Origin: Escherichia coli
Lineage (GTDB): Bacteria > Pseudomonadota > Gammaproteobacteria > Enterobacterales > Enterobacteriaceae
DNA: 64,000 bases
Reading direction: 5' to 3' (one strand)
Assembly: GCF_022846255.1 (NCBI RefSeq)
Contig: NZ_AP025682.1
The notes beneath the pieces are model-generated. The model saw only the letters and a program-made list of their open reading frames with translations. It had not been told where the DNA came from and did no database searches. Within the stretch, counting starts at the first letter, position 1; each line of letters opens with the position of its first letter. Made by a program: the position numbers and the translations under genes. This document shows, one piece after another, positions 1-52,998 of this stretch.

Positions 1-40
1 GCTGATGATTAAGGCTATGCAGGAAGGATTCGCGGGATAA
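1..40 (+). CDS. 3' end of an upstream gene (partial, ...LMIKAMQEGFAG*); possibly the partner kinase subunit of the following PTS phosphotransfer protein
   Basis: Open frame running off the window start and ending at TAA 38-40, three bases before the next start codon; identity is not determinable from 13 codons. Confidence 0.25.
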   Translation, partial: LMIKAMQEGFAG

Positions 41-43
41 ATT

Positions 44-2425
44 ATGGTTGCCATTGTTATTGTTTCTCATAGTCTACGTCTCGCCCAGGGGATTGAGGAA
101 TTAGCACTACAGATGTCTGGAGGGGACGTTCCTCTGGCCATTGCTGCAGGTATTGATGATCCGCAACATCCGATTGGCACTGATGCTATTGCCATTATGT
201 CTGCGATTGAATCGGTCTGGTCACCGGATGGCGTTCTGGTACTCATGGATATGGGCAGTGCGCTGCTTAGTACCGAGATGGCGCTGGAGCTGCTTTCTGA
301 AGAGCAAAGAAGTGCAATTTATCTGCTCGCCGCCCCTGTAGTGGAAGGTGCCATGTCAGCGGTAACGTCTGCCGCAGCGGGGCTTTCGGTGACGGAGATT
401 ATCGCTGAAGTGGATCTTGCGCTGTGCGCTAAACAGCAGCAGCTCATGCCATCCCCGCCTGCAGGCGAGGTTATTCCAGCAATATCACCAGTCAATCATT
501 CCGGTGAATGGCAAACTTTTTGCTGGACGATATGTAATCCCCACGGCATTCATGCTCGTCCGGCAGCCAGCATCCTGAAAGTATCAGCACAATATTCGGC
601 AAACATTATCGTCATCAAAGGCGATAAACGCGCCAGCACCCGCAGTCTCAACGAACTGGCAATGCTGGGCGTCCGCTGTGGCGATGAAATCATCTTCCAG
701 GCCGAAGGCACCGATGCCAGTGACGCTCTCAAGGCAATTGAAACGTTGGCGAAAAATCATTTTGGTGAAGCTCACCTGCTCGCTTCTTCAGAGATTCCGC
801 TAACGGAAACGCCGGTGGTCAGCGCCCCTGTCGATGGCGCAATATCAGGCTTGTCAGTACAAAATGGTATCGCTATTGGTCCTGTTAAATGGTTTACCTG
901 CGAACGACCAGAAATTACGCAGCGCACCGTCGATTCTCCGCAAGAAGAGCTGTCGCGAATCGAGTCTGCTATCGACATTGTTGTTTGTGAACTTGCCGAT
1001 AAAGCGGCAGGCCCTGAAGGCGATATTTTTGCCGCCCATAAAATGATGCTTGAAGATCCAGAGATTAACCGGCAATTACAGCAACGTCTGGCAAAGGGCA
1101 AACAGGCGGAATTCGCATGGTTAGAAGTCATGCAGGCATTAGCAGAGCAATATTGTCAGGCGGAAACACTGTATTTACGTGAACGCGAGGCAGATATCCG
1201 TGACCTTACACGTCAGGTACTGAACCAGCTTTGCGGGGTAAGTGAACAACACTTTATCACTACCGCGCCCTGCATTTTGTTAGCCAACGATCTGTTGCCA
1301 TCACAGATAACCAGCCTGAATAAAGCACACATTCTTGGCATTTGTCTTCATAACGGCGGAACAACTTCACATACAGCGATCCTTGCCAGAGCAATGGGAA
1401 TCCCCGCTATTGTGAAAGCGGCGATTACCCCGCAAAACGTCCGCGATAACGACACGGTCATTCTTGATGGTGAAACAGGCCGTTTGTGGCTACAGCCGGA
1501 TGAGGTCACCCGCCTGGATTTACTGCAACGCGCCGAAGCATGGCGGCAACAAAGGGATCGTCAGTTAGCTGATGCCATGCTGCCCGCTGTCACGCAAGGT
1601 GGGCGTAAAATCAGCGTGCTGGCGAATATTGGTGATCTGCAAGACATTGATGCCGCACTGTCTCACGGCGCTGAGGGCGTTGGCTTGCTGCGTACCGAGT
1701 TTTTATTCCACGATTCTGCGACATTACCTGATGAGGAAGAGCAGTTCCGTGTGTATTGTTCTGTCGCCCGAGTTTTTGGCGACAAACCAGTCACGATCCG
1801 GACTCTGGACATTGGTGGTGATAAACCGCTACCTTCATACCCTTTACCCACAGAGGACAACCCCTTCCTGGGACTTCGAGGTATCCGGTTGTGTCTGGCG
1901 CATCCACAAATATTTATTCCTCAATTGCGCGCACTTATCAGGGCCGGGAAAGAATACCCAACGTTGCAAATTATGCTGCCGATGGTTTCAACGCTCGAGG
2001 AGGTCAGGGCCGTCAAAACATTGATACATGCTCAGGCAAAACTGCTGGAACTTACTGCAGAAAATCTTCCGGCGCTGGGAATTATGATTGAGGTTCCTGC
2101 CGCAGTCATGATTGCAGACAAATTAGCCAGTGAAGTCGATTTCTTTTCCATCGGCACCAACGATCTGACGCAATATATTATGGCGGCAGACAGAGGAAAT
2201 AGCACCGTCGCGAAACTGGTCGATTATTGTAATGACGCGGTGATTAACGCTATTGCTATGGTGTGTCAGGCCGGACGTAATAATGAAATTCCGGTCAGTA
2301 TGTGCGGCGAAATGGCTGGAGATATCCAGCAAACAGCACGACTGCTCACCATGGGGATTGATAAGCTCAGTGCCAGTCCATCCCGGCTTCCGGCCTTGAA
2401 AGCAGCAATCAGAATCTCCCACTAA
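44..2425 (+). CDS. PTS multiphosphoryl transfer protein, DhaM-like EIIA domain + HPr domain + Enzyme I domain fusion (793 aa)
   Basis: N-terminus MVAIVIVSHS...GIDDPQHPIGTDA resembles the DhaM N-terminal domain; HPr-type His motif NPHGIHARPAA; Enzyme I active-site motif GGTTSHTAILARAMGIPA and PEP-utilising barrel motifs (RTLDIGGDKP, NDLTQY). Confidence 0.8.
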   Translation: MVAIVIVSHSLRLAQGIEELALQMSGGDVPLAIAAGIDDPQHPIGTDAIAIMSAIESVWSPDGVLVLMDMGSALLSTEMALELLSEEQRSAIYLLAAPVVEGAMSAVTSAAAGLSVTEIIAEVDLALCAKQQQLMPSPPAGEVIPAISPVNHSGEWQTFCWTICNPHGIHARPAASILKVSAQYSANIIVIKGDKRASTRSLNELAMLGVRCGDEIIFQAEGTDASDALKAIETLAKNHFGEAHLLASSEIPLTETPVVSAPVDGAISGLSVQNGIAIGPVKWFTCERPEITQRTVDSPQEELSRIESAIDIVVCELADKAAGPEGDIFAAHKMMLEDPEINRQLQQRLAKGKQAEFAWLEVMQALAEQYCQAETLYLREREADIRDLTRQVLNQLCGVSEQHFITTAPCILLANDLLPSQITSLNKAHILGICLHNGGTTSHTAILARAMGIPAIVKAAITPQNVRDNDTVILDGETGRLWLQPDEVTRLDLLQRAEAWRQQRDRQLADAMLPAVTQGGRKISVLANIGDLQDIDAALSHGAEGVGLLRTEFLFHDSATLPDEEEQFRVYCSVARVFGDKPVTIRTLDIGGDKPLPSYPLPTEDNPFLGLRGIRLCLAHPQIFIPQLRALIRAGKEYPTLQIMLPMVSTLEEVRAVKTLIHAQAKLLELTAENLPALGIMIEVPAAVMIADKLASEVDFFSIGTNDLTQYIMAADRGNSTVAKLVDYCNDAVINAIAMVCQAGRNNEIPVSMCGEMAGDIQQTARLLTMGIDKLSASPSRLPALKAAIRISH

Positions 2426-2472
2426 TTGTGACCTAACGCGATACGTCTTGCGCGTATCGCGTTTCCCGTCAT

Positions 2473-2865
2473 TTACTGCGGCATCGTGCGATGCCAGTTC
2501 CCCTTCTGCCAGACCAGGTCAAACGTTAGCGGCTCATCATCGTGGTACAGCATCATCTCCAGACTAATGGCCAACTCGTGGCAATAGGCTTCTTTCAGAT
2601 TGACCTGCAATGCCGCAATACGTGGCTCATGAAATAAAAGCGCGGAACGTAACTGGCGGCAATACCAACTCTGGAGAAGCTTGTCGCTCTGATTATGCCC
2701 TTGCCACTCAGGCATGCCTGAAACAAGTAATATTGGTAGCGGTGAATGGGGAGAACTAAAAAGTTGAAAGAGATCCCGGCATACGGAATCACGCAGCGAT
2801 AACGTATTGTTTCCTGTACTTTCAGGTAATACCGTCTGAACTGATTGGCGCATCATTTTGCGCAC
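2473..2865 (-). CDS. iraD: Anti-adaptor protein IraD-like (130 aa)
   Basis: 130-aa ORF consistent in length and sequence with my recollection of E. coli IraD/YjiD; sits beside uxuR as in K-12, but yjiC is not between them. Confidence 0.55.
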
Positions 2866-3232
2866 TCCTGACGTTTAGTGGCATCTGTATCCTGCCCTGG
2901 CTGCCGGACACCACTGGGTTGATGCTCATATTCCATAATCATTCCTTTATGCTCATTGCGTCCCTGGCACTTTCATAAAGGATTTATAAGATCCGCCAAA
3001 GATAAAACACTGTACAGAAAAGAATATCCACTGACTTTTAATTTAAAAAGGTATCATTTGACAAAAGTCATTAAACATAACGGAAATACGTTAACATATT
3101 CTGATTATTCCGAATAATTTCTCAGCGTTAAACTGATATATAATTATTCCAAAACAATATATCGTACGTAATGATTAAATTACGCATAATATATTCTGCA
3201 GAACATAATTAACTATTCAGGGAACATACATA

Positions 3233-3256
3233 GTGCAAAGCGGTTAAACTTTGCAC
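3233..3256 (-). terminator. Weak hairpin downstream of uxuR (gtgcaaag-N8-ctttgcac)
   Basis: Inverted repeat immediately 3' of the uxuR stop on the minus strand; the U-tract is poor. Confidence 0.3.
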
Positions 3257-3269
3257 CAGAAATGAGGGA

Positions 3270-4043
3270 TCAGGCGTCGACTTTATCCAGCGGCCATGAA
3301 TCAAACAGATAGCCATCGAAATAGATGTCATCAACATTAGAGAACTCCAGCAAGCGCTGCTTCACATTCTCCAGATGCTGCCACATTGCCAGCTTCGCCG
3401 CTCGGGCATCTTTTTTGATTAACGCGGCGAGGATCTGTTTGTGATCGCCCAACCACTCTTTGCGATACAGGCTGTCATCCAGGTGGCTGTGCAACTGGAT
3501 CCACATTGGATTGTTTTCCCGCCACTGCCAGGACTGACGGAATAACTCCACCAGCATGCTGTTATGCGTTGCTTCGGCAATAGCGAGATGGAACTGCATG
3601 TCACCGCTTTCGCTGCTGCCCGGCGCGCTGGAAGCCAGTTCACGCTCTTCCAGTTGCAATGCCTGGCGCATTTTGACGATATCTTCGCGGGTAGCCTGCA
3701 GGGCGGCAAACTCGGCGATGTTACTTTCCAGTAACTGCCGCGCCTGTAACAGCTCAAAAGGACCGGCATCGTTGCAGACGTTGGCATCCGGACTGTCTGC
3801 GTTGTGGCTGCCTGAGCTATCAAGAACATAGATACCTGCACCCCGACGCACTTCCACCAGCCCTTTGATCTCCAGCATGATCAGCGCTTCACGTACCACC
3901 GTCCGCGTGACATCAAGCATTTCTGCAATTTCACGCTCCGGTGGCAGCCGTTCGCCAGGATTGTACGGCGTCTTTATGATCAGATCGCGGATCATCGCCC
4001 CGACTTCCTGGTAAGGTCTTTGCGCAGAGGTGGCAGATTTCAT
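3270..4043 (-). CDS. uxuR: GntR-family transcriptional repressor UxuR (257 aa)
   Basis: Full-length ORF with N-terminal GntR HTH (PGERLPPEREIAEMLDVTRTVVREAL); length and sequence match recalled K-12 UxuR; conserved uxuA-uxuB-uxuR synteny. Confidence 0.9.
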   Translation of the reverse strand: MKSATSAQRPYQEVGAMIRDLIIKTPYNPGERLPPEREIAEMLDVTRTVVREALIMLEIKGLVEVRRGAGIYVLDSSGSHNADSPDANVCNDAGPFELLQARQLLESNIAEFAALQATREDIVKMRQALQLEERELASSAPGSSESGDMQFHLAIAEATHNSMLVELFRQSWQWRENNPMWIQLHSHLDDSLYRKEWLGDHKQILAALIKKDARAAKLAMWQHLENVKQRLLEFSNVDDIYFDGYLFDSWPLDKVDA

Positions 4044-4080
4044 GGTGTTGTGTCCGTTAGGTGCGGTTAATCAAATTTTT

Positions 4081-4114
<34 letters not shown>

Positions 4115-20875: not shown

Positions 20876-21660
20876 TGCGGCACTATAATGGTTTTCACAA
20901 CAAGGAGCCATTTTCTTATACCACTTTCAGAGACCATCCGCTTATGCCACCGCCCTCTACGCAACTGTTTGCAGAGCACCTTCCCACCGAGTGGATACAG
21001 CACCTCCTGACGCTTTCTGCTCATGCGACCATTTGTCGTCTTAACCTGAGCGCGGATGGCGAAGCGGGGATTAGCCTGCTGGCCCGCAGCGCTGTCACCC
21101 AGGAGCGCCAGCGCGTGGGGGCCCCCTGGTGGAATGGCTCTTCCGCCAGACCGCACAGACATGGGGCGCGGAACGTTACCTGAAGGATGACTGGCACGGC
21201 CTGCAACTTTTTGCCATTGATGGCGCACAGTTCAGGACACCTATGAACCTGAGTTGCGCGAATATTATGGCTCTGCCAACACATCCACTGAGCGGCAGAG
21301 CGCCTACCCGGTCATGCGTCTGGTGGCGTTAATGAATCTGGGAATCACATTCTGCTGAATGCCATGACCTCGGCCTACCGGCGGAGCGATACAGCGTGAG
21401 GCAACTAAAGCGGCGTCAGAAATCAGCTTTAAGTTCGCATTCCAGTTTATCGTGACAGAAATGATAGTGCAGGGAAATACGGCGTCACCAGGAACCATCC
21501 CGAAACGGCTGGAGCATCTGCGGGGTGCTCTGGAAGCGGTGTTCCCACGACTATCAAGGCCGAGGGCTGTTAAGGTATCAAAAACCCGTTATCCGGTGAA
21601 ACACAGTGCCGCCCCGCTTAAGTGACGGCATTGTGTTTCTGACTGGCCTTAACTTTCCCT
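20876..21660 (+). mobile_element. Degenerate IS4-family transposase remnant (frameshifted and internally deleted)
   Basis: Broken frames encode ...PPPSTQLFAEHLPTEWIQHLLTLSAHATI..., ...WLFRQTAQTWGAERYLKDDWHGLQLFAIDGAQFRTP... and ...PGTIPKRLEHLRGALEAVF..., resembling an IS4-type DDE transposase; no intact ORF. Confidence 0.45.
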
Positions 21661-21794
21661 GAATCTCTGACGATCCTCACCATTGATATTTTCTTCATTC
21701 CTCACCAGAGAAATAAAAAATCACTATACTCATCAAAATATGAGATTACATTTATTCAGGCGATCACCTTACTATTTTATACGGAAAATAAATC

Positions 21795-22445
21795 ATGAAT
21801 ATCCGTCAATCATTACATGACCGAATCTATGCAGAATACCCTCAACAGGCTAAAGATATATTACTGTATTTCCCCACTTATGAAATTATGCCATCGACCA
21901 TAAAAATGGTTATGATTAATGAGGTGGTAGCTATAACACCGCAAGAAGATTTTTATACACCAGAGTCTGGTTATTTTACGACTGTCGCCCGACAGTTAGC
22001 GCTGGCTGGATTATCGGCAAGTAGTGGCGAAGTCTTACTCAACCATGGTATCTACCTGACCTCCGCACTGAAACTACCTAAAACACAGATCACAGCCACA
22101 CCCGCGGAGATCATTCTCTGGTCACCTATTGTAGAATGGGAGCTCGAACTCTTTGCCAATATAAAAGTTATTTTCGTTGGCGGCGATATCGCGCGAAAAT
22201 GCCTTAACATCATCGCGAAAAAGCAAACACGTAAACATGCCATCCCTTCAACTCCGACGTACAAACTGATGAATAGCGAATTAGTCTGGAAAGGAATAAG
22301 CATACTTCCTGGATATATTCTTACCGGAAAAAACCTGCTCATTGAAAAGTCAAAAATCGAAATGAATGTCGAACAATTAAGAAAAGGAATTGCGATTTAT
22401 CGCAATAGTAACAGTAACCATACGAATAATTCAGTTCATGAATAA
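21795..22445 (+). CDS. Hypothetical protein (216 aa), AT-rich orphan gene
   Basis: Intact ORF with AT-rich composition unlike its neighbours; no motif I can assign confidently. Confidence 0.45.
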   Translation: MNIRQSLHDRIYAEYPQQAKDILLYFPTYEIMPSTIKMVMINEVVAITPQEDFYTPESGYFTTVARQLALAGLSASSGEVLLNHGIYLTSALKLPKTQITATPAEIILWSPIVEWELELFANIKVIFVGGDIARKCLNIIAKKQTRKHAIPSTPTYKLMNSELVWKGISILPGYILTGKNLLIEKSKIEMNVEQLRKGIAIYRNSNSNHTNNSVHE

Positions 22446-22916
22446 GAGATGAATCATTAATAACAAGAAATCACTGACAAACCACCTGTAAAAGGTCAAT
22501 CATTTTAGTTCAATTTCCTTTGTCATGATTATATTTTTATCGTCCTGACGATACTATTAACAATTACAATATTTATACCCTCCCCTGAACAAACAGAAAA
22601 GAACTCATACATTCGTTTATAATTCTGGTAATCCTGGCATCATACGTTTAAAATTTAAGGTGTTTGTTTTATAATCATGATTCCAAAGACTATTGGTCAC
22701 CAGAAAATGCCAGCCTTTTCGTGCCAGCTATATTTGTCCAGTGTGTTACCCCATCCAAAAATCATCCACATCCTGATGTTACGTTAGATATAGAGAAAAC
22801 AGGTTGTACTGTGCAATATGCTAACCGCATAAGCGAATATAATTTCTAAGCTGATATTGTCTGGCTGTTGGGAGCTAAACAATATAAATATCGCCAGTTG
22901 CCAGAACGGTTATATA

Positions 22917-22942
22917 GACCAGGAGCGTTTCGGCTCCTGGTC
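22917..22942. terminator. Hairpin in the convergent intergenic region between the orphan ORF and the UvrD-like gene
   Basis: gaccaggagc-gtttcg-gctcctggtc 10-bp perfect stem; could terminate either convergent transcript. Confidence 0.35.
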
Positions 22943-22958
22943 TGTTTCGGACATATTA

Positions 22959-25073
22959 TCAATCAGCCACTAATAGCGGACTAGGGATACCAGATGATGA
23001 AACAAACAGCCCTTTTACGGCACGGGTTGCAGCCACATGCAGTAACGCGCGCTCATTAAATAATGCATCACGCTGTTCAACGGGATCATCGGATGCTAAT
23101 GCTTTTATTTCCGGCACAACGCCTTCGTTAATCCCCACCAGGAACACATACTGGAACTCAAGCCCTTTAATACGGTGCATCGTTGCAACTCGCACGCCTG
23201 GGCGTTCATCGCTGTCACCGCTATCATTGCCTAAATTAAATGTCTCAATTCCGGCGTCATTGAGTGCTGATGCGTAGCGGTCGCAAGCATGTTTAGTACG
23301 CGCAGTAATGCAGATATCCTGAGAACGAACCTGACTCGCCAGCAATGCCTGAATTTGCTTGACGAGTGTTGCAGCCTCTTCTTTGAAATCTGCCGCATGC
23401 GTAATCATGGGCTTTTCCCCGTGCAGTAATGACAAATAATCATTACTGGTATCCGCTTCGCCATCGAGGTTATCAACCTTCACACCAGTTAACAGCCCAA
23501 CAGCAAATTGACGCGTCTCTTCTGTGGTCCGATAGTTAATCTTCAATTTTTTACTGCGACGACCACGGACGTTAATACCACACTGACCAAGAACGACCTT
23601 ATTGCGATAAATACGCTGATGCCCATCCCCGACAATAAACAGATCGTTGGGCGACTCGGGAACCAGGCTGCGAATAAGAGTAAATGCCGGGGCACCGATA
23701 TCTTGAGCTTCATCGACGACAATACTGCTATAAGGTAGTTGGACCTGCTTTTCTTTAAACAGAACAATAGCCTCATGCATGGCATCGCCCATTTCGCGCA
23801 GTTTGGCACGCGCCATTTGTGCTCTGAATTCTTCGAAAACTGGCCAGATTTTCGCCCGTTGAATACGGGATAACGCTGTACCACGTCCAACCCGGCTGAC
23901 TTTGAGGTATTCCTCCCGGGTGTAAACCGCATTTGGCTGGACAACGCGTTGCCACTCTTCAGCATAGAAATTGTCAGGTAGCCCCAGTTCGGCAGGTGCC
24001 TGCTGCAAGGCATAGTTCCAGCATTTACGTCGCCCTTCATCGCTGTCGTATACCACGCGGAAATCATAACCGTGGCGTTTTAGTTGGTCGCTCATCCAGG
24101 CATCAATGTTAACGACGTCAATACGCGCCATCTCTTCTCGCGTACACAACCGCTGGAGATTAGCGCGAATATCTGCCGCCAGGTTACGCGTAAAGGTCGT
24201 GAAAAGTACCTTCTTACCGGGTTTATCTGCCAGACGCTGAGATAACCACCGCGCACGGTGCATTGCAACAACCGTTTTCCCTGTACCTGCACCGCCCAGT
24301 ACTCGTACCGGACCATTAGCGGGCGACTCCACCAGTTTTCGCTGGCTCGGATGCAGAAATACACGCCATTTTTCTAAAGGCGCATTAAGCATCTGCAACA
24401 GCTCCTGTTCATTTTCAACGACATGGAAGCGACGTTTACTTCGTTCAATCGCCTCCATAAAGTCGTTGGTATCAACAGGCTCGTCACGATGATCGTTAAA
24501 CTCTTCCAGCACTTCCTGGTAATCCAGCCCTTCTGCCAGCCAATGCAGGGGTTCCCAGGCTTCTGCTGGCATTATGCTTTCAAGTTGATTAAGCCCGGCT
24601 TCATCGGTAAGCGCCATCACCTGATCAATAAAGACAGGCGGCACACCCAGGGCCAGAATCTGTTCCGCGCTGTAAGCTGCGAAGAGTTTCGGTTTATCTA
24701 GCACCGTTTCCGCCGCCGGTTTGATATAGCTAATATCAATAACCTGAATTGCGCCGGTAACCGGGTGAATTGAACAATCATGCCGCCGCGCCCAGTCGTA
24801 TGCTTCGTCGTGTTTATCCACCCACATCAGCATATACAGGGCACCCTGTTCAGGTTTCAGAACAATGCCGCGATAAGTTTGATCGATTCGCACCGAATGG
24901 ACATTTTTACTGCGCGCATCGTGGATCTTTTCATAGTTAAGTCCATTACTGGTCGGGTCCTGACGGAATTTGGAGATGAATTCCTGCACCTTTTTTTGCT
25001 GTGCTTTTGGGATCCGCGCGAATGCGCCCAGAAAACCATCAGAAAGTGCCACCTTGGGCGTTTGCACCGTCAT
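22959..25073 (-). CDS. UvrD/Rep-like superfamily 1 helicase with a ~200-aa N-terminal domain of unknown function (704 aa)
   Basis: Walker A GGAGTGKT, motif II VVDEAQD, C-terminal UvrD-like motif (MHRIKGLEFQYVFLVG); start overlaps the upstream gene's stop (ATGA). Confidence 0.8.
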   Translation of the reverse strand: MTVQTPKVALSDGFLGAFARIPKAQQKKVQEFISKFRQDPTSNGLNYEKIHDARSKNVHSVRIDQTYRGIVLKPEQGALYMLMWVDKHDEAYDWARRHDCSIHPVTGAIQVIDISYIKPAAETVLDKPKLFAAYSAEQILALGVPPVFIDQVMALTDEAGLNQLESIMPAEAWEPLHWLAEGLDYQEVLEEFNDHRDEPVDTNDFMEAIERSKRRFHVVENEQELLQMLNAPLEKWRVFLHPSQRKLVESPANGPVRVLGGAGTGKTVVAMHRARWLSQRLADKPGKKVLFTTFTRNLAADIRANLQRLCTREEMARIDVVNIDAWMSDQLKRHGYDFRVVYDSDEGRRKCWNYALQQAPAELGLPDNFYAEEWQRVVQPNAVYTREEYLKVSRVGRGTALSRIQRAKIWPVFEEFRAQMARAKLREMGDAMHEAIVLFKEKQVQLPYSSIVVDEAQDIGAPAFTLIRSLVPESPNDLFIVGDGHQRIYRNKVVLGQCGINVRGRRSKKLKINYRTTEETRQFAVGLLTGVKVDNLDGEADTSNDYLSLLHGEKPMITHAADFKEEAATLVKQIQALLASQVRSQDICITARTKHACDRYASALNDAGIETFNLGNDSGDSDERPGVRVATMHRIKGLEFQYVFLVGINEGVVPEIKALASDDPVEQRDALFNERALLHVAATRAVKGLFVSSSGIPSPLLVAD

Positions 25074-28000
25074 TTGTCACCTCCGGACAGATGTTGCAAT
25101 GTATTTTCGTCAATTGGCCCGAATGCTACGTGCCAACCCCTGGTTGTGAATAATGGAATAAATTCTTGATTATCAATAATCAATGCCCATTTTTGTGATG
25201 GCCAGGCGAGATCGGCTTCCGCAATAATTTCCCCCTCATCATTTTGCAATTCGTAGCCGAGAGTCGGCGCAGAGAGAGAATGAGACTGAAGCAACGCGAT
25301 CTCTTCAGCGCTTAATAAGCCAAACTCAATAATCTCAGCCCAACTCTCATCAGTCTCTGGTACTGCCTCTGGCGTTGCCGAAACTTTAGTGTCAACGCTT
25401 TCCTGCGGTAAATGCACGGCTTTACGGCTGGTAAAGGTTATATCCGGCAGGAACTGTAACAGGTTTACCAGTCGCCAGAAGCCATTGAGTCCCGCTTCAT
25501 AACCGTCATCCTGCGTATAGCGATCGTCAAAACAGATATGCAAACGCAGCCAGCTGCGCATTTGTGCGACACTGGTCGTCGGTTTAATGGCTTGTTGTGG
25601 CAACACCGAAGCCAGCTCAATAAATTGCTGCGATGAGTTACAGCTATCGAGTAAACCACCAAAGACAAACGGTTCGTCTGGCAAAAGCTCTGCTAGCCGC
25701 CAGGCTGGCGCGTTTTCCTGCATTTCATAGGCATACTTTTGTTTCGTTCCCGCGTCCTGTGACTTCTTCACATCCAACCACACCCAGGCATGTGCAGCAG
25801 CCATTTTCTGCCATAACTGCGTTCTTCCTCCCGGATCGGCGAGATAATCCAGCAGCAGTGCAAAACTGTTGCGTTCCCGGAACGACGCTTCAAGGGCCGC
25901 AAAGTTGGTATCGTGAAACAGGTTATAAAACTTAGGCTGTTTCATATCCGGGTTATGCCCAAGCCCCAGGACATCCTGAACATGTTTAAGCCCAGGCTCT
26001 TTGAGATCGGCCCACGTGACTGTCCACACCCAGAAATTATCGCTATCCCGAATCGCCTGGCGTTTTTGCACATCCTCTGCGACGCTATTTTTGTGAAACG
26101 CAAAGCCATCAAGGAAAATAGCTACCGGTTTAATGGCATCAGACTGCATAAGCGGATATAGCACGTAATCCGGGCGACAAGGGATCCCCACCGCCTCTTT
26201 AGCGCCTAAATCCACCTGAGCTTTAAGATGCCAGCTCATCATCGGTTCGCTGCGGGTGTTAATAATCCACCCAGCGCCCTGATGCGCGTAACTGCGACTG
26301 ACAATCAGGTTTTTATTTTCTTGCAGGCAGCTAATAAACCGTTTTTCCAGCTCACTGCCCATCATGGCTTCGAGGGAAATGTTTTTGATGGAATCAATTA
26401 CCCGTATCGAATCTCTTGCCTGCAAAATTTTCGCCAGCAAGAGACGCGCCTGATCGCGGGAGACATACTTCATGCGCCCACGGTCACGGTAAGCGTAAAC
26501 GCAACGATAACAACCATCTTTATGCGTATCATGGTTGCAACTGCATTCCACTATCGCCTGATAGGCCAGTTCAAGTAATTTCAGCAAATTGTCGGGAGTG
26601 CGCATCAGCTCTTTAAGAGAACCAGTTCCCCCCGGGACGGTATCGTAAATCACCAGATACTGCCGCCAGGATTCGCCTTCATTTTCCGGCTCGCGGTACA
26701 CAACGCCTTTCAGGTGATCGACATTCCCCTTGAAGTAATGTTTAAGACCTAGCTGGATCGCCGCCCCAAGAGAAGCCTCCACGACACGGTCATTACTGTA
26801 ACTGCTTACCGGGAGCAGAATACGCAACGCTTCTGACTCCAGCTGGCGATAGAGATAGAGATAATCTTCGAACTTCGCCTTTTCGGGTTCCGTGCGATAT
26901 TTGCAGCTCAAATCATGACGGGGTTCATGATCGCGAGGACGCTGTACCATGCCGCACCCGAGGCAAACTTTAAACCCGGTTCGCTTCTTCGCTTCTCCGG
27001 CAATCATCAACTCATTGGCATCATCCGCCATTTTGCCGAAGTTGATATCCCGCAGGGTGACTTTGCTTAAAAATTCAAAACCAAACGGAACTTCGCCTTC
27101 CTCAATCGCGTATGCCGCCGATACATCTTCTTTTTCGAAACTAACCAATAGCTGACGCTGGAAGAAAGCAGGTTCACGGCTGTCGCTCTCGTCGCTGATC
27201 TGGCTATCACGTGCGCTGGCGCGGGCATACACCTGGCGAAGTTTCAGCAGCGTGGTTTTTTGTCCGGCGTCGGCCCACCCCGGTGTGCCACATTTCGGGC
27301 AATATTTATGCTGGTCGCCCGTCTGGTCGATATTTTCGCTGTAGTTACAGTGGCTACAGATACGCCAGTTCTCCGGCTCAGAGACCTTCAGGTCTATCTG
27401 CTCAATTTCAACTTTATGCCCACCGGCATAGAAATTATTCAGCGGAGCCAGCTCAGCCAGCGCCGTTGATGCCGGGCGTTCATATTCGAAAGTGGTGTTT
27501 TGATATTCACGTGCTTCCCCGCCTTCTTTACGCCGCCAGAGCACAGAACGTAACGTAATACCGGCTTCCGGGAAGGCGTAGTTAGGCAGCAGACCTTCAT
27601 CCGTGAGGAAATTCAGCGTCTGCTTATTGTTGATTTGATTGACCAGCGCCATCAGCGCCTGCCGTTCTGAAGTTAACTCGCGCATATCGCTGTCAAAGTT
27701 TTGATCGCGCGGCGCGTTCTCCAGCTTATCGATACTGCGCTTGAGTTTATCGATGCGTGAACGCAGAGATTTGCGATCTTCCACCAGCAGTTTTAACGCC
27801 TCTTCGATACGCTGCACCAGAGAGCGTTGTCCTGGCGCGCCCTGAAGATAAGACAACAACTGTTGGCGAGTTTCTGCGGCAAGATCGGGGAAGATCGCCG
27901 TAAATTGTGCAGCAATCTCCGCATGATGCTGTTCGATATATCTCAGTAAGTTATACGGAAAACCCGATTTACGCCCGAACTCCAGCTCATCCAGCATCTG

Positions 28001-31000
28001 TTTGACGTTTTTACAGATAGCGGATTCTGGTACACCGGTTTTCACCCAGTTATCCATACAAAAAGCTGCCAGCTGGCGTTCGAGAATAGCCGTTGCATTG
28101 AGGAAGACGCCAGGAGCCTGCACCTGGCCCTGCATCATCTCCAGTGGTTCTTCAAAGAAAAACTGATCGTGCGGGTTCCCTTCTGCCACGGTAATGTTTA
28201 ACGCGTTACCATCTTTACGACCGGCGCGACCAATACGCTGCAAGTAGTTGGCCTGAGCAGGTGGGACAGAACAGAGTAAAACGGTGGAAAGATCCCCAAC
28301 GTCGATACCCATCTCCAGCGTCGGTGTTGCCGACAACAGGTTGATATTCCACGGTTGGTTGCCGCGGTAGAACGATTTTTCGGTGGCTTCGCGATCTTCA
28401 CGGCTAAGCAGCCCCGTGTGTTCTGCGCCCTGCACGCGCGCGATGTCCATGTTCTCCCAACGCCAGGTCGCCGTATTGTCGACTTCCTGGTAACGACCTT
28501 CACAACGTAAAGAGAGACAAGGCGCATTACGCCACTGCCACCCTTGATCGGCCGGAGCCCGGACAACCTCACGGCAACATGAGCAATTAAGCTGAACGAC
28601 GTCACGGCTCACCACCAGCGCCGAAGGCACCAGTCCCCAGGCTTCACGCCCTTTGGTGTCAAAATCTTTTACTACTCCGGCTATTTTCAACGCCGTAAAC
28701 AGGCGTCGTAACACCGTTTCCGCAACGCTACTGATAAACAGATTATTGCCGTTACTCAGCGTGCGATTGATCCAATGCTGATACCAACTGGGGTTAGACT
28801 TCGCGCCAATCAGGCGATGGAAACCATTAATTTTTTCAAACGACGCGTAAGCCGGTTTACGCGTTTTCGGACCGATAGAAGGCATATAGCGCGAGGTACG
28901 CTCTTTTTGCGTCATCATAAAGGTCGTGCCATCACGGCGATAACTTTCGAACGCCGGATGCATAACGGCCCCGGCCTGGCGTTGATACCAGATAACCCCC
29001 AGCGCCAGGTGCGCTACCTGCTCGACGCTCACACCGGACATCTCATCACCCAGCTCTTCACAAAGCTGTTGATGCAGGGCGGTAATTGCCGGATTAAAGC
29101 GATCTTTATCCACTCCAGCAACGGCATAACCGGTGGCTTCCAGCGTACGTCCGATACGCGCGCGCAGGGTGAATTCGCTGTACACCTCCCAGTCGAGGCG
29201 CAGGGAAACCAGCTCCGGCAGATCGGAGTTCTCCGCCAGTTTGCCTTCATTTTTCAGTGTCTGATAATCATTCAGCCACTGCATATTTGGTGCGATGAAG
29301 TTCGCTGCAAAATGAGCATCGTCCGGTGAACGTTCACGCGTTTGTTGGCAAACACGCGCCGCGAACGCATCCAGCGGTAATGTCTCTTTTTCGCCAAGAA
29401 CACTGGCGATTTGCCCACGAATCATCAGCGGCCAGGTTCGGGCAGTAAAAAAGCTGGCACGATGCGCGGCGTCTTGTACCGAGTCAGAAAACGTAATCAG
29501 CTTTTTATGTTCGTTGAACTGGCTGCCATAAAGCTGGTGAATCATCACCGCCGACAGACTGGCAGCCCGTGACCCCAGAATCGAAATCCCCTGTTTGCTG
29601 TTGCAGTACGGGCATTCATTAGCAAACTCCAGCTCGTCCTTACGCTCTTTGAGCATATCTGGGATCAGTACCTGCAACAGCTCTGTATGACCACAATGTC
29701 CACACTGGACGCTGGACTGTCGGTTCAGTTTCAGGCAGGTAGGGCACAGTTTCTGGTGTGCGCCACTGACCGCTTTTTCGTTGTTATCCGGGAAAGCAAG
29801 GACGATGGAGCGCCCTTTTTCAAAGAACTGGCGATAAATGCCGTCGAGGTCTGTTTCCAGCTGAACGCTTTGCCCATGACGCAGGCTGGCCCAGCCGGTT
29901 GCGTGGCAGTCACGGCAGTGGATAACCGGCAAATAGTGTTCGCGATCTTCCACCGCCACATCATCGGCAAACACCAGTCTCGGTGTTTTCGCCACGCTGG
30001 CGACCAGACGACGCATCTCACGAAGCCACAACTGGGAGCGCAGTTGCACAAACGGCAGCACCGGGCGCGCTTTCTTCGCCTGGAGACGTTTTTGCCGATC
30101 GTGGTCCGTTTCCGGTACTTCGAGACGTGCCTGCGCGATCAGCGCCAGAATGCTTTGCAGCACGCGTCGGGCATGGTCGGCGCTTTCTGCCAGCATGACC
30201 TGGAGATTTTCCAGACACTCTCGTTCAGAGAGGATCCCGCCTTGCAGATCATGGAGTAAGACATGCATCACGCTGTGGCGGCGTAACAGTGACCCCAGCG
30301 CAATACGCTTTTCACGCCCGTCGTCGCTCTCCAGATCGTCCGGGAGTTGCAAGTCGCTGTCGGGGAACCACAAAGGGATTTGTCCGTTGAGATACGCCAC
30401 CGGGGTAGCGTAACTCTGCGGGTCCAGGGCCGAAGCGACCTCCGGCCCCGGATACTGACTGTACGCAATGGCGTAATCCTGCAAGTACTCCGCTGCCGTG
30501 TAGCGATCTTCGCGAATAACGGCGTCATCGGTAAACGGCTGGTCAAAGATTGTTTTTGCGTAATCGAGCAGTTGCCCCAGTTCGTCGCCGACGGTCGCTG
30601 ATGTCCCGACGCAGGCGAATCGTTGGTTATCTACACCTATGTGATGCTTCAGACGTCGCACCAGACAGGCCAGATCCGACCCTTGCGCGCCATCAAACGT
30701 ATGCAATTCATCCACGACCAGGTAACGCAATGAACCGGGCTGGTTGTAACGCCAGAGCGGCTGATCGCCAGGGCGCATCAGCAGGTAGTCGAGCATTTTG
30801 TAGTTGGTCAACAGGATGTCCGGCGGGCTTTCGCGCAGCGTGTGCTTACAGGTAATGACCTTTTCTGCCGACATTTTTTTGCTGGGTTCGATTTCGCTGT
30901 CGCCGACAAACAGGCCGACGGTCACCTTGCCATGCAGTTGTGGATCGCTGGCGATGGTTTTGGCGAAACGGCTGGCCTGATCGGTTGCCAGGGCGTTCAT

Positions 31001-31411
31001 CGGGTAGATGATAATCGCTTTAACCCCGGCTTGTGACGCGCCCGCGCAGTGGTTGAGCAGCGGGAACATAAAACATTCTGTTTTACCGGAGCCGGTACCG
31101 GTAGCGACCAGTGTCGGCTGTGGCGCGTCGCTTCCCAGACGCTGAAATGCCCGGGCCTGATGCGCGTGCGGCGGGAACGGCAGCGTCAGATTAGGGAAGA
31201 AATTCAGCGGTAAGTCACTTTTACAAAACGGCAACTGGGCGGAAAGGTATGGTCCTTTCAGCAGCGTTTCAGGCTGGGCCAGAAATTGCTCCAGCATTGA
31301 GACATTATCGTTATTCTCGCCGTTAAACAGCGGGCTGTTTAGCGGGAACGCCGCCCGTAAAAAGGCGGCAACGCTGTCGGCGACCTGCCGACTGACAACG
31401 GATGGCAGCAT
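25070..31411 (-). CDS. Giant DEAD/DEAH-box helicase with Zn-ribbons and a DUF1998-like module (DruE-like / fused DrmA-DrmB-like), 2113 aa, with a C-terminal Vsr/DUF559-like nuclease-fold motif
   Basis: Motif I ATGTGSGKTECFMFP, motif II VVDELH, motif VI QRIGRAGR; several CxxC clusters (CSHCNYS...CPKCG, CLGCG, CSCNH...CYRC); DUF1998-like VIYDTVPGGTGS; C-terminal DYVLYP...IFLDGFAFH; 1-nt overlap with the upstream methyltransferase gene (TGATG). Confidence 0.75.
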   Translation of the reverse strand: MLPSVVSRQVADSVAAFLRAAFPLNSPLFNGENNDNVSMLEQFLAQPETLLKGPYLSAQLPFCKSDLPLNFFPNLTLPFPPHAHQARAFQRLGSDAPQPTLVATGTGSGKTECFMFPLLNHCAGASQAGVKAIIIYPMNALATDQASRFAKTIASDPQLHGKVTVGLFVGDSEIEPSKKMSAEKVITCKHTLRESPPDILLTNYKMLDYLLMRPGDQPLWRYNQPGSLRYLVVDELHTFDGAQGSDLACLVRRLKHHIGVDNQRFACVGTSATVGDELGQLLDYAKTIFDQPFTDDAVIREDRYTAAEYLQDYAIAYSQYPGPEVASALDPQSYATPVAYLNGQIPLWFPDSDLQLPDDLESDDGREKRIALGSLLRRHSVMHVLLHDLQGGILSERECLENLQVMLAESADHARRVLQSILALIAQARLEVPETDHDRQKRLQAKKARPVLPFVQLRSQLWLREMRRLVASVAKTPRLVFADDVAVEDREHYLPVIHCRDCHATGWASLRHGQSVQLETDLDGIYRQFFEKGRSIVLAFPDNNEKAVSGAHQKLCPTCLKLNRQSSVQCGHCGHTELLQVLIPDMLKERKDELEFANECPYCNSKQGISILGSRAASLSAVMIHQLYGSQFNEHKKLITFSDSVQDAAHRASFFTARTWPLMIRGQIASVLGEKETLPLDAFAARVCQQTRERSPDDAHFAANFIAPNMQWLNDYQTLKNEGKLAENSDLPELVSLRLDWEVYSEFTLRARIGRTLEATGYAVAGVDKDRFNPAITALHQQLCEELGDEMSGVSVEQVAHLALGVIWYQRQAGAVMHPAFESYRRDGTTFMMTQKERTSRYMPSIGPKTRKPAYASFEKINGFHRLIGAKSNPSWYQHWINRTLSNGNNLFISSVAETVLRRLFTALKIAGVVKDFDTKGREAWGLVPSALVVSRDVVQLNCSCCREVVRAPADQGWQWRNAPCLSLRCEGRYQEVDNTATWRWENMDIARVQGAEHTGLLSREDREATEKSFYRGNQPWNINLLSATPTLEMGIDVGDLSTVLLCSVPPAQANYLQRIGRAGRKDGNALNITVAEGNPHDQFFFEEPLEMMQGQVQAPGVFLNATAILERQLAAFCMDNWVKTGVPESAICKNVKQMLDELEFGRKSGFPYNLLRYIEQHHAEIAAQFTAIFPDLAAETRQQLLSYLQGAPGQRSLVQRIEEALKLLVEDRKSLRSRIDKLKRSIDKLENAPRDQNFDSDMRELTSERQALMALVNQINNKQTLNFLTDEGLLPNYAFPEAGITLRSVLWRRKEGGEAREYQNTTFEYERPASTALAELAPLNNFYAGGHKVEIEQIDLKVSEPENWRICSHCNYSENIDQTGDQHKYCPKCGTPGWADAGQKTTLLKLRQVYARASARDSQISDESDSREPAFFQRQLLVSFEKEDVSAAYAIEEGEVPFGFEFLSKVTLRDINFGKMADDANELMIAGEAKKRTGFKVCLGCGMVQRPRDHEPRHDLSCKYRTEPEKAKFEDYLYLYRQLESEALRILLPVSSYSNDRVVEASLGAAIQLGLKHYFKGNVDHLKGVVYREPENEGESWRQYLVIYDTVPGGTGSLKELMRTPDNLLKLLELAYQAIVECSCNHDTHKDGCYRCVYAYRDRGRMKYVSRDQARLLLAKILQARDSIRVIDSIKNISLEAMMGSELEKRFISCLQENKNLIVSRSYAHQGAGWIINTRSEPMMSWHLKAQVDLGAKEAVGIPCRPDYVLYPLMQSDAIKPVAIFLDGFAFHKNSVAEDVQKRQAIRDSDNFWVWTVTWADLKEPGLKHVQDVLGLGHNPDMKQPKFYNLFHDTNFAALEASFRERNSFALLLDYLADPGGRTQLWQKMAAAHAWVWLDVKKSQDAGTKQKYAYEMQENAPAWRLAELLPDEPFVFGGLLDSCNSSQQFIELASVLPQQAIKPTTSVAQMRSWLRLHICFDDRYTQDDGYEAGLNGFWRLVNLLQFLPDITFTSRKAVHLPQESVDTKVSATPEAVPETDESWAEIIEFGLLSAEEIALLQSHSLSAPTLGYELQNDEGEIIAEADLAWPSQKWALIIDNQEFIPLFTTRGWHVAFGPIDENTLQHLSGGDK

Positions 31412-36345: not shown

Positions 36346-36347
36346 GA

Positions 36348-39206: not shown

Positions 39207-39364
39207 CGGTTTTTCTGTCTATTTGGGGCAGTGGCGGTAACGTCATCCTGAAAAATGTGGCGCGGCACACTGCGATAAAAAAGAGGGCCTTAAAGATATC
39301 ATGAAGGCCCCCGGCAAAGTGACAAAATGGGAGGGAATGCGCATAATTTGCGCATGATTTTCAA

Positions 39365-39421
39365 ACAAAAATTATTAAAAAGTGAGCTGGGTCAACTCCC
39401 CTGGAAGATATCCCCAGGGGA
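39365..39421 (-). terminator. Rho-independent terminator downstream of druE
   Basis: tcccctgg-aagatat-ccagggga stem-loop (39397-39421) followed on the minus strand by a T-rich tract (plus-strand A-run 39366-39380). Confidence 0.5.
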
Positions 39422-39429
39422 GCAATTAT

Positions 39430-48700: not shown

Positions 48701-49103
48701 CACAAGCCAGTGTATGCAGATAACCCGAAGCTTGCCCCAGGTTTCTTATCTTTCTTTTCCAGTAGCGAATGCCATCATTAACCAGCTTCTGTTGATGAAC
48801 ATACGGAACTTTCCAGTCAATAGAATCTAAAATTGTGTCCCATTTAGGGTGTCCGACCGTATGAGTCCGGCGGATAAACTCTGCGGCATATATGCTAAAT
48901 AGAACATCGCTATAGGAAATGAATATCGTTCTTGGATAACTACGGGGGGCATATGTACGCAGTAGTTCTGCCAAACTTTCGTACTCTGTATCAGTACAAC
49001 GGTAAGCATATAACGCCCGTCCATCAGCTCCGGATAATGAACGGCGACTAAAAAACATGTTAAGCCATTGCAAAAGTGGGTTAACTGGAGTTTTCACAAG
49101 CAA
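45744..49103 (-). CDS. druH: Large protein without recognisable motifs, consistent with Druantia type III DruH (1119 aa)
   Basis: Assigned only by size, absence of known motifs and tight coupling upstream of the DruE-like gene. Confidence 0.5.
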   Translation of the reverse strand: MLVKTPVNPLLQWLNMFFSRRSLSGADGRALYAYRCTDTEYESLAELLRTYAPRSYPRTIFISYSDVLFSIYAAEFIRRTHTVGHPKWDTILDSIDWKVPYVHQQKLVNDGIRYWKRKIRNLGQASGYLHTLACEGGLPIRMIENESGYLITYFRRIYQALRGQASQYPAAKIAQELGDTIPVTMQNELVYEIAGEFCETLCRLLSEHPPQSSDPVSALRKLSPDWHLQLPLVLPEANAAEIVRRLLSQSSEIRSASSLQVERIWVDVDDSWYCDARFRFPAIMRTEQLTSLFECNIQPEQTRLIISGKWRNGGARLAMLSRYEQQDWRVELLPIAMQKLSGADAMAEISLSLHEGPILLGHTIPKGGYELTEELPWVFEAMNESESQLKLVGMGSVSSRLNALFISLPKNSHLDISGEGEFDIPRLLKNSERSLTKISGVFSVVLHDGAVCTIRTQQLYDSAIEYYIKSTEVELVKSDYPVHRAWPKIGWKKDLQYGIVPEKELFWRSIRSGNNAWYSVASEMPKGQIEVRRIVNDEVLFSGKVVVLPTDFDINIIPESAQQGIIMLSGITDTRIDKYSNNEKVTLKSDYSQNECAIYYNSSEMLENTVDLRVSWKDGSNLKLLLPKPVSGGRFVTHDGSVHFDGVASIAHLHGIDAELLTISCAGRGYLNIELLDENPVAEKFRYLHADLPLLSGCNDKLKQISLYENYNLLNAMLACAWNSNSTLCVDFYSDRFGKDKATLSIKRYDGSFIEHDQGLLVDIKNSVVFPANRIDELVVDAISLKDPGLHISLLKKDEFAYDLSALNVQDSPWLIVGKLDGTARIAPVIKWGLPVLQTNDLLLNALCEADSEQRKKYFNELIFEIDNNPLQNYCCLLTEYIKKYKMNNGLSLLDLDLFRGISSNYRVVVQLLISSCLSGDSDTIYDIQEELPFSWGWIPVSIWKDVFQKCWAYLEKQINDKTLALHILQPFIAFMNHRAHIDRRLAPIANMLLTYGELLPAGCNVLPTVSREQFNEAKQMLLRNPDSFGRISIFPKELWSSAITPELKSVFNKLWIEDKYHSRLEKRFNLMLVAALLTQKDNNLIHQLSALFEFHYQQAPQQLGVIYQYYFEQAGVCH

Positions 49104-49314
49104 CCTGCCTTCCTTTGATACAATTCGTAACAGGTTACTATCATCATAAAAAAGCTCAACCCGATGAACTCGCTAAAAATGAGACAAATCATTTATATCT
49201 CGAAAAAACTTGTTACAATCATGAGCGCTACACCGAACTTAACCATATAAATTATGTGTGTTTTGTTTATTTTTTAAACAATTACAACTATCCATTATTT
49301 ACACAGGTATCAAA

Positions 49315-50967: not shown

Positions 50968-50973
50968 TCGATC

Positions 50974-51681: not shown

Positions 51682-51684
51682 GAG

Positions 51685-52788: not shown

Positions 52789-52799
52789 ATTCCGAAACT

Positions 52800-52835
52800 C
52801 CGTGAAAGTTAAGGCTTTCACGGAAGATAAATATA
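52800..52835 (+). terminator. Terminator-like hairpin after zorE
   Basis: ccgtgaaag-ttaagg-ctttcacgg 9-bp stem 12 nt after the zorE stop, followed by an AT-rich tract. Confidence 0.45.
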
Positions 52836-52998
52836 ATTTTCCTGATTTGTGACTCAAATTACAAAAGTCGTTTATGGCATAACTTGTCTGTTTTTTTTGG
52901 TGTAATAGGTATAAAGGCATATGCTATGGTTAGCCTTATATTTAAAACTTTCCTCATACGGGTGAAGGTTAAAGATTGGTAGATAGGTTACAGTCACA

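Follow-up and report, generated by a model that had tools for sequence, protein, structure and literature searches.

The iraD-proximal end of a likely GimA cluster in Escherichia coli: a DhaM-HPr-Enzyme I fusion and a yjiC-less haplotype

GimA was reportedly described by Huang et al. in 2001. The cluster comprises 14 genes over approximately 20 kb, is located between yjiE (hypT) and yjiD (iraD) beside the fim operon in group-B2 E. coli, and contains a pptE gene with a published length of 2,382 bp (Homeier 2010, PMC2878320). Its first operon is dhaK-dhaL-pptE, also written ptnIPKC (GimA1), and the other three are cglDTEC, gcxKRCI, and ibeRAT (Homeier 2010, PMC2878320).

The K-12 counterpart for comparison with PptE is DhaM (b1198), a 472 aa protein with the domain order DhaM/EIIA-Man, HPr, and EI-N, whose gene likewise comes after dhaK and dhaL. 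K-12 DhaM ends at residue 472, after the histidine domain of Enzyme I (EI), and lacks a PEP-binding domain. It therefore relies on the general EI and HPr, a dependence that Gutknecht et al. are said to have described in 2001.

We analyzed a 64,000-nucleotide stretch of E. coli DNA (assembly GCF_022846255.1, contig NZ_AP025682.1), hereafter the window, which starts inside the dhaK-dhaL-pptE operon. Positions 1-3269 very probably represent the iraD-proximal end of GimA, with PptE/PtnI as the phosphoryl donor of an accessory dihydroxyacetone (DHA) kinase and the loss of yjiC belonging to the same haplotype block (features in Table 1). The position agrees with this assignment, as iraD, uxuRBA, and the fim side lie in the window and the hypT side is found in two collinear genomes, Z1323HEC0477 and NC101. 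The first GimA gene, pptE/ptnI, is exactly as long as published (2,382 bp), and the pptE primers from the literature match 2084..2103 and 2405..2425 (0 and 1 mismatch), bounding a product of 342 bp. The published yjiD primer matches 2711..2730. That this arrangement is an assembly or sequencing artefact is close to inconceivable: we found no support for such a reading, at least 25 independent complete genomes match the first 12 kb collinearly from end to end at 99.0-99.1% identity, and the short iraD-uxuR spacer occurs once per genome in 491 genomes.

Positions 2..40 translate to LMIKAMQEGFAG*, a tail collinear with dhaL as annotated in Z1323HEC0477 (locus L001, 19408..20040) and in NC101; 3 bp separate the dhaL stop from the pptE ATG. 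The original prediction had seen the end of another gene here, suggested an accessory PTS-dependent kinase operon, and proposed a check for DhaK/DhaL-like genes upstream. The partial gene proved to be the last 13 codons of dhaL, and dhaK and dhaL are annotated directly upstream of pptE in both collinear genomes inspected, which supports the operon; what had gone unrecognized was that the cluster is GimA and the gene pptE/ptnI. In these genomes the order is dhaK, dhaL, and pptE, then glycerol dehydrogenase, MFS, FAD oxidoreductase, BCCT, glycerate kinase, tartronate semialdehyde reductase, hyi, gcl, dhaR (ibeR), ibeA, nhaC (ibeT), and hypT, so that ibeA and genes of the three other GimA operons are present in both. 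Because the window ends 40 bp into dhaL, we infer the other 13 GimA genes of the source genome from these collinear genomes only. The GimA DhaK and DhaL are 59% and 55% identical to the K-12 subunits, respectively.

Compared with GimA of RS218, UTI89, APEC O1, and BEN2908, the window has the same site beside yjiD/iraD near fim, the same gene length and primer matches, and, through the collinear genomes, the same upstream order. There is no essential difference from GimA of ExPEC, of which the window holds only the last gene and 40 bp of dhaL. The pptE gene is 96.3% identical in DNA to the reference GimA-positive strains UTI89 and BEN2908, and the window is ~99% identical to NC101. The allele is of the NC101-like group, not the ST95 group (3.7% difference). 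The PptE protein is 99.6% identical to that of Z1323HEC0477 and 99.0% to that of NC101.

Table 1. Features of the dhaL-uxuR region, in window coordinates.
Feature	Position	Strand	Remarks
dhaL 3' end (ptnC/GimA1 DhaL subunit)	1..40	+	frame 2..40, stop codon 38..40; last 13 codons
pptE/ptnI (PGAP name 'ptsP'), DhaM-HPr-Enzyme I fusion	44..2425	+	793 aa, 2,382 bp
EIIA-Man/DhaM-type domain, aa 4-118, His9	53..397	+	PF03610 2.4e-23; TIGR02364 118 bits vs cut-off 98
HPr-like domain, aa 159-237, His170 in GIHARPA	518..754	+	PF00381 4.3e-21
Complete Enzyme I, aa 267-790, His443 and Cys754	842..2413	+	TIGR01417 459 bits vs cut-off 342
Stretch surviving as the published 'GimA remnant' in strains without the rest, 342 bp	2084..2425	+	published pptE primers
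Hairpin between convergent pptE and iraD	2428..2472	.	inner 12-bp stem 2435..2463
iraD (yjiD), GimA-linked allele, 127 aa	2473..2856	-	NF010728 297 bits vs cut-off 196
idlP, 27-codon iraD leader ORF	2853..2936	-	stop overlaps iraD start (ATGA)
iraD-uxuR spacer, AT-rich, without yjiC	2857..3269	.	413 bp, 35.4% G+C
Terminator-like hairpin just downstream of uxuR	3231..3258	-	single consensus match; weak evidence
uxuR, first gene of conserved backbone	3270..4043	-	NF007588 583 bits

The 793-aa protein had been read as a fusion of a DhaM-type domain, HPr, and a complete EI, and Pfam and TIGR domain searches bore this out. Pfam places EIIA-man at residues 4-118, PTS-HPr at 159-237, PEP-utilisers_N at 269-381, the mobile domain at 408-479, and PEP-utilizers_C at 511-790, with E-values spanning 1e-20 to 6e-99, and at the sequence level PptE unambiguously matches solved structures of EI, HPr, and DhaM. 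The N-terminal domain scores above the TIGR02364 cut-off with His9 aligned. All three EI domains are matched (PF05524, PF00391, PF02896), His443 and Cys754 lie in conserved motifs, and residues 267-790 align to residues 2-538 of E. coli EI (2hwg) with E = 4e-101. PptE GGTTSHTAILARA stands opposite EI GGRTSHTSIMARS, and MCGEMAGD opposite MCGELAGD; the catalytic His loop and the Cys502 motif of E. coli Enzyme I (PtsI; PDB 2hwg, 2kx9) are kept. In contrast to PtsI, the EI part of PptE is fused behind DhaM and HPr domains, lacks the last ~35 residues of PtsI, and falls below the PtsI equivalog cut-off (403 bits vs 824).

Superposing the K-12 DhaM sequence on PptE aligns DhaM His9, His169, and His430 with PptE His9, His170, and His443, within the same domain order. 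The alignment covers only PptE 1-484, at 37% identity, and beyond it PptE adds ~310 residues that constitute a full PEP-utilizers_C domain. PptE is also below the cut-off of the full-length K-12-type DhaM equivalog NF008478 (420 bits vs 520). By these comparisons PptE is a distinct, longer DhaM subtype and not the K-12 orthologue.

The genomic context bears on the partner of PptE. Besides the dhaL tail at 2..40 and the dhaK and dhaL genes of the two collinear genomes, dhaL lies directly upstream of pptE in E. albertii, and in the collinear E. coli the gene follows dhaL by 3 bp within a dhaK-dhaL-pptE operon. We therefore consider it improbable that PptE is not dedicated to a DHA kinase and acts instead as an alternative general or regulatory EI branch like PtsP/EI-Ntr, FryA, or PtsA, feeding other PTS proteins or signalling. 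Such a branch would accord with the PGAP name ptsP, with the several orphan multidomain EI/HPr fusions known in E. coli, and with scores of 393 bits on the PtsP model and 403 on the PtsI model alongside the missed K-12 DhaM equivalog cut-off. Both scores, however, are below the respective cut-offs of 583 and 824 bits, whereas the N-terminal domain exceeds that of the DhaM-specific model, and all of K-12 DhaM is collinear with PptE with the three phospho-histidines matched.

We thus favor PptE as the putative phosphoryl-donor subunit of a second, accessory PTS-dependent DHA kinase. Since it carries a PEP-binding domain, PptE could accept phosphate from PEP unaided. The phosphate would then pass inside the protein from His443 (EI) to His170 (HPr) to His9 (DhaM domain), and from His9 to ADP held by DhaL, which would in turn phosphorylate dihydroxyacetone bound to DhaK. 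We infer this autonomous relay from the domain content and the conserved residues. The GimA neighbors, namely glycerol dehydrogenase, transporters, glyoxylate-to-glycerate genes, and the DhaR-like IbeR, are in keeping with use of a carbon source. If PptE does free the kinase from EI and HPr, DHA and glycerol use would escape PTS-linked carbon control. A search of the available literature returned no experiments on PptE, and ptnI/pptE/GimA1 are covered there by Homeier 2010 only.

On the iraD side, K-12 had been expected to carry other genes at this place, which is not the case. In K-12 hypT abuts iraD, while here ~20 kb of GimA lie between them, and the difference is therefore an insertion/deletion polymorphism and not a replacement. 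The iraD product belongs to the IraD equivalog NF010728 and gives 234 bits with the K-12-type model NF010726. Identity to K-12 is 82.6% for the protein and about 78-81% for the DNA, and the last ~9 residues of the protein are non-homologous. K-12 iraD, the experimentally studied allele, is the genus outlier, with 77-82% DNA identity to all others. The window idlP translation (27 codons) aligns with K-12 IdlP, MENEHQYSGARCSGQAAYVAKRQECAK.

The K-12 region (iraD, idlP, ytiD, ytiC, yjiC) and the window have in common iraD, the idlP leader, the ATGA junction, and then uxuR. The window lacks yjiC, one more small ORF, and most of ytiD; its IraD has a different C-terminus, and its iraD does not overlap hypT. 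As predicted, an AT-rich gap of ~400 bp separates iraD from uxuR, 413 bp long; the corresponding 1,643 bp of a K-12-like genome contain idlP, ytiD, yjiC, and one more small ORF. The predicted absence of yjiC was also upheld: tblastn of the whole 64-kb window with K-12 YjiC (DUF2686) returned a best E of 1.2, so that yjiC is missing between iraD and uxuR, and its relocation elsewhere in the window can be rejected. Positions 2857..3119 are ~78% homologous to K-12 and include a ytiD fragment at 3057..3125, whereas 3120..3269 have no K-12 counterpart. Homology resumes at 3270, and from its stop codon on uxuR is 96.3% identical to K-12 in DNA.

Outside this region the backbone is 96-97% identical to K-12 up to the hypT stop and again from the uxuR stop, with iraD between them at 77-78%. 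Judged by these identities, the variable block appears to be bounded by the hypT and uxuR stops, and it includes the divergent iraD allele and the shortened iraD upstream region. We rejected the idea that a K-12-like ancestor simply lost yjiC by deletion, because the flanking iraD segment is 22% divergent and the backbone 3-4%. The missing yjiC is not a separate event but belongs to the same old haplotype block. The polymorphic unit may accordingly reach beyond the published yjiD-yjiE interval, carrying a divergent IraD C-terminus and a truncated iraD upstream region, and if so, GimA-type strains might control RpoS stability differently. Our joint reading, in which the GimA DHA kinase is independent of EI/HPr and the polymorphic unit exceeds the yjiD-yjiE interval with a divergent IraD, is tentative, and we hold it with slightly more doubt than belief. 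Since the B2 iraD allele and upstream region differ, work on K-12 IraD may not transfer directly to B2 pathogens.

Among 5,426 complete E. coli genomes, 491 have a single copy of the short iraD-uxuR spacer (at least 95% identity) and 4,896 have yjiC, both figures being aggregate totals. The non-remnant part of pptE is present in 245 of the 5,426 (4.5%), at full length in all but one. Homology with the remnant strain N1420 begins at 2052. Publications from 2001 and 2010 already cover GimA together with its DHA-kinase operon and remnant forms, and the absence of yjiC is part of this common variant. The observation is thus genuine but unremarkable, and with every gene annotated by PGAP it carries little weight as a discovery. 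What is added is that the variable block continues across iraD and the yjiC region as far as the uxuR stop, that absence of yjiC is linked to the GimA/GimA-remnant haplotype (491/5,426, about half with full pptE), and that the GimA locus or its remnant also occurs in E. albertii and a cryptic Escherichia clade.

These outgroups came from a profile scan of genome contigs with an IraD alignment, which recovered only six loci because just two peptide patterns were used; the sample is thin and does not include E. fergusonii, E. marmotae, or Salmonella, and locus L009, a 605-bp contig resembling E. coli within an assembly of Bacillus coahuilensis, was left out as contamination. In E. albertii, a full pptE (90% aa) and dhaL (95% aa) adjoin iraD, and yjiC is present as well. 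In Escherichia sp. E1V33 there is a remnant of pptE, and yjiC is absent. The yjiC-less spacer of the window has counterparts in E. whittamii and E1V33 at 95.5% identity. Together these data suggest that the GimA locus is old, and its presence, whole or as a remnant, in E. albertii and the cryptic clade lends support to the view in the literature that GimA is ancestral and that most E. coli have lost it.

The opposite history, in which GimA is a pathogenicity island recently acquired beside iraD in B2 and the yjiC loss an unrelated lineage-specific deletion, is unlikely. The original 2001 description termed GimA an island, its G+C content is 46% compared with the ~51% quoted for the RS218 chromosome, and only 4.5% of complete genomes carry it. 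However, neither mobility genes nor a tRNA or direct repeats are found at the flanks; pptE and dhaL in E. albertii, and a pptE remnant in E1V33, occupy the same position beside iraD; the 95.5% identity of the yjiC-less spacer to those of E. whittamii and E1V33 is a species-level divergence and not the mark of a recent event; and pptE differs by 3.7% between B2 lineages. Ancestry and reductive evolution of GimA were already argued by Homeier 2010 (PMC2878320).

Regulatory signals in the intergenic DNA were also surveyed. An Rfam scan of window positions 1-8000 at gathering thresholds returned no RNA family. A consensus promoter/terminator scan found matches in 2300-3400 no more often than in shuffled sequence, and we therefore claim no promoter for the AT-rich spacer; the hairpin downstream of uxuR is weak evidence for the same reason, its match count being no more than chance in the region. 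The hairpin between pptE and iraD was not called by the consensus scan because it has no T run. It folds at -22.4 kcal/mol with a z-score of -5.1, a stability reached by 0 of 200 shuffles, and is probably a two-way terminator.

The start of the window belongs to GimA, the gene cluster that lies between yjiD (iraD) and yjiE (hypT) in group B2 E. coli, and we consider this identification secure. Among 5,426 complete E. coli genomes searched by megablast, 244 contain all of positions 1-3400, and the annotation beneath those matches reads dhaL, ptsP, iraD, uxuR. We used the annotated neighbourhoods of two genomes, Z1323HEC0477 (99.5% identical) and NC101 (~99% identical and collinear over the window's first 20.9 kb). 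Both carry, in order, hypT, nhaC (ibeT), ibeA, dhaR (ibeR), gcl, hyi, the genes for 2-hydroxy-3-oxopropionate reductase, glycerate kinase, a BCCT transporter, an FAD oxidoreductase, an MFS transporter and glycerol dehydrogenase, and finally dhaK, dhaL, ptsP, iraD and uxuR. GimA has been described as a 20.3-kb cluster in the yjiD-yjiE interval adjoining fim, with four operons (ptnIPKC, cglDTEC, gcxKRCI and ibeRAT) and with the 2,382-bp pptE (synonym ptnI) as its first gene (Homeier et al. 2010, PMC2878320). The ORF in the window, which PGAP names ptsP, has exactly this length and is 96.3% identical to pptE of the reference GimA-positive strains UTI89 and BEN2908. The published pptE probe primers match at 2084..2103 (no mismatch) and 2405..2425 (one mismatch), giving the published 342-bp product, and the published yjiD primer matches perfectly at 2711..2730, within iraD. 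Hundreds of genomes already have this known feature annotated. We add only the extent of the block, with its divergent iraD, retained idlP and lost yjiC, together with counts across genomes and evidence from outgroups.

Coordinates of features in the window and of the domains of PptE
Feature	Position	Strand	Source
pptE ORF, 793 aa, 2,382 bp	44..2425	+	ORF list
iraD	2473..2865/2856	-	ORF list
uxuR	3270..4043	-	ORF list
EIIA-man	PptE residues 4-118		Pfam
PTS-HPr	PptE residues 159-237		Pfam
PEP-utilisers_N	PptE residues 269-381		Pfam
Mobile PEP-utilizers domain	PptE residues 408-479		Pfam
PEP-utilizers_C	PptE residues 511-790		Pfam
UvrD/GajB-like helicase	22959..25073
Second DruE-like helicase, 2,113 aa, C-terminal HNH domain	25070..31411
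Type IIG restriction-methylase, 1,644 aa	31411..36345
DrmD-like SNF2 helicase	36348..39206
DruE3, full length	39430..45753
DruH3, full length	45744..49103

Beyond uxuR the ORF order continues with uxuB, uxuA and then fimH. Positions 2..40 encode a protein C-terminus, LMIKAMQEGFAG followed by a stop, that ends 3 bp before the pptE ATG, in keeping with the original prediction that the end of another gene precedes the fusion gene. That prediction had also proposed an accessory PTS-dependent kinase operon; a check for DhaK/DhaL-like genes upstream supports this reading, with both dhaK and dhaL annotated upstream of ptsP in Z1323HEC0477 and NC101. RNA folding gave a stable hairpin of -22.4 kcal/mol (z = -5.1) between the convergent pptE and iraD, which probably ends both transcripts.

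The 793-aa product is, as had been proposed, a fusion of a DhaM-type domain, HPr and a complete Enzyme I. Five Pfam domains occur in order, and the NCBIfam models for PTS Enzyme I (TIGR01417, 459 bits, cut-off 342) and the DhaM domain (TIGR02364, 118 bits, cut-off 98) score above cut-off; the NCBIfam model for full-length K-12-type DhaM gave 420 bits, under its cut-off of 520. Against solved structures, residues 2-538 of E. coli Enzyme I align with PptE residues 267-790 (E = 4e-101), and PptE keeps the Enzyme I catalytic loop GGTTSHTAILARA and the motif MCGEMAGD. K-12 DhaM is collinear over its whole length with PptE residues 1-484 (37% identity), with PptE His9, His170 and His443 opposite DhaM His9, His169 and His430. 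Beyond this alignment PptE has ~310 extra residues, constituting the PEP-binding domain with Cys754. Identity to the K-12 subunits is 59% for GimA DhaK and 55% for GimA DhaL; between IbeR and DhaR it is 33%.

In K-12, as established by Gutknecht et al. (2001) and by work of the Erni laboratory, phosphate passes from PEP through EI and HPr to DhaM and on to DhaL-bound ADP, and DhaL then phosphorylates DhaK-bound dihydroxyacetone; K-12 DhaM reportedly cannot use PEP directly. Judging from its sequence, PptE would autophosphorylate from PEP, relay the phosphate internally and, independently of EI and HPr, supply the DhaKL pair of its own operon. Combined with the nearby glycerol dehydrogenase and transporters, such a relay would make a self-contained glycerol-to-DHAP pathway by way of DHA. 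A literature search for experiments on PptE found none.

The predicted ~400 bp of AT-rich DNA between iraD and uxuR proved to be a 413-bp spacer of 35.4% G+C overall, with G+C values dropping to 0.32-0.37 between the two genes, and the predicted absence of yjiC was borne out by a YjiC search that gave no match in the whole window. In the K-12-like genome used for comparison, hypT and iraD converge and overlap at their 3' ends, and the iraD-uxuR interval spans 1,643 bp and contains idlP, ytiD, one more small ORF and yjiC. Against this sequence, window positions 2501..3119 (iraD and 263 bp upstream) are only 77.8% identical and 3120..3269 have no counterpart. Window and K-12 IraD share 82.6% protein identity, with the last ~9 residues unrelated; idlP, a leader ORF of 27 codons, persists and overlaps iraD at ATGA just as in K-12, and a ytiD fragment is left at 3057..3125. 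On the hypT side, identity between GimA-positive and K-12-like genomes is 97.4% as far as the hypT stop; on the other side, the window and the K-12-like sequence match at 96.3%, starting at the uxuR stop (3270). The polymorphic block therefore extends from one stop to the other. Its K-12-type version is ~2.0 kb long (iraD, small ORFs, yjiC) and its GimA-type version ~21.1 kb (14 GimA genes, divergent iraD, short spacer).

The short spacer was found in 491 of the 5,426 genomes, always at 95% identity or more and in one copy, and yjiC in 4,896. These aggregate totals sum to 5,387, so the two states appear nearly to exclude each other across the 5,426 genomes. The part of pptE that is missing from GimA-remnant strains was present in 245 genomes; the difference implies that roughly half of the short-spacer genomes are without full pptE. 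One such strain, N1420, has the last 374 bp of pptE directly after hypT, which is the remnant pattern as published (Homeier et al. 2010, PMC2878320). The remnant-forming deletion in N1420 (7990-8010, compared with 2160-2200 and 22040-22060 of the Z1323HEC0477 locus) appears to have fused a short sequence after hypT (TTCTGCAAAA) to a similar short one within pptE (ACTGCAGAAAATC), suggesting a microhomology-mediated event.

One search of species-representative genomes, using the two IraD alleles in alignment as the query, yielded six loci, which were compared by marker proteins and DNA alignment. E. albertii NBRC 107761 has uxuR, yjiC, iraD, full PptE (90% aa) and DhaL (95% aa) before the contig ends, and its YjiC is only 62% identical to that of K-12. 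Escherichia sp. E1V33 has uxuR, a 417-bp spacer without yjiC, iraD, a pptE remnant (aa 669-793) and hypT; E. whittamii has a yjiC-less spacer and iraD, with hypT directly after. Two divergent "E. coli" representatives lack yjiC and are missing hypT in part or whole. Spacer and iraD of the window align collinearly with E1V33 and E. whittamii at 95.5% identity. For the K-12 arrangement, the collinear match to E. albertii reaches only 70.9%. Compared with either K-12 or E. albertii, the window has its breakpoint at one and the same position, 3119/3120. In a DNA identity matrix of iraD, the K-12 allele is 77-82% identical to each of the others, and the window allele shares 97% identity with cryptic-clade alleles and 87% with the E. 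albertii one. From this small outgroup sample we infer that the genus has long had a DHA-kinase operon next to iraD, that the yjiC-bearing and yjiC-less forms both go far back, and that GimA has been lost from most E. coli. This reading agrees with and extends the reductive-evolution view of Homeier et al. (PMC2878320).

The E. albertii locus (8528-13449) has yjiC, full pptE and dhaL all beside iraD, a combination unseen in the E. coli genomes inspected. K-12 iraD (2956-3348 of the K-12-like locus) is the genus outlier relative to the window (2473-2856), E. albertii, E. whittamii, E1V33 and the two divergent E. coli. The flanking uxuR and hypT are 96-97% identical, and NCBIfam keeps three separate IraD models. 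The sixth locus, a 605-bp contig (NZ_ABFU01000118.1) with a K-12-type IraD and a HypT end at 100% identity, was left out as almost certainly E. coli contamination of the Bacillus coahuilensis m4-4 assembly.

Elsewhere in the window, gntP, in the uxuA-fimH interval as in K-12, is cut to ~215 bp by an internal deletion (7013-7712; start codon near 7324, stop near 7539). This arrangement occurs at 80% query coverage or more in 846 of the 5,426 genomes, NC101 and N1420 among them; gntP is intact in Z1323HEC0477, the closest match for pptE. Positions 20877..52978 form a ~32-kb insertion relative to NC101 and Z1323HEC0477, both collinear on either side (the nanS region). The insertion contains a Druantia type III pair (DruH3, DruE3) and a second cluster, comprising the first four entries of the table after the PptE domains. 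Also in the insertion, three plus-strand genes at 49258-52788 encode a 569-aa MotA/ExbB-like protein, a 235-aa OmpA-like protein and, without a Pfam match, a protein of 367 aa, a layout that looks like a Zorya system (ZorA, ZorB, effector). Outside the insertion, a minus-strand operon at 55374-63909 encodes proteins of 334, 298, 1,478, 351 and 332 aa; the 334-, 298-, 1,478- and 332-aa proteins have no Pfam match at 1e-5, and the JetD C-terminal domain of the 351-aa protein suggests a Wadjet-like system.
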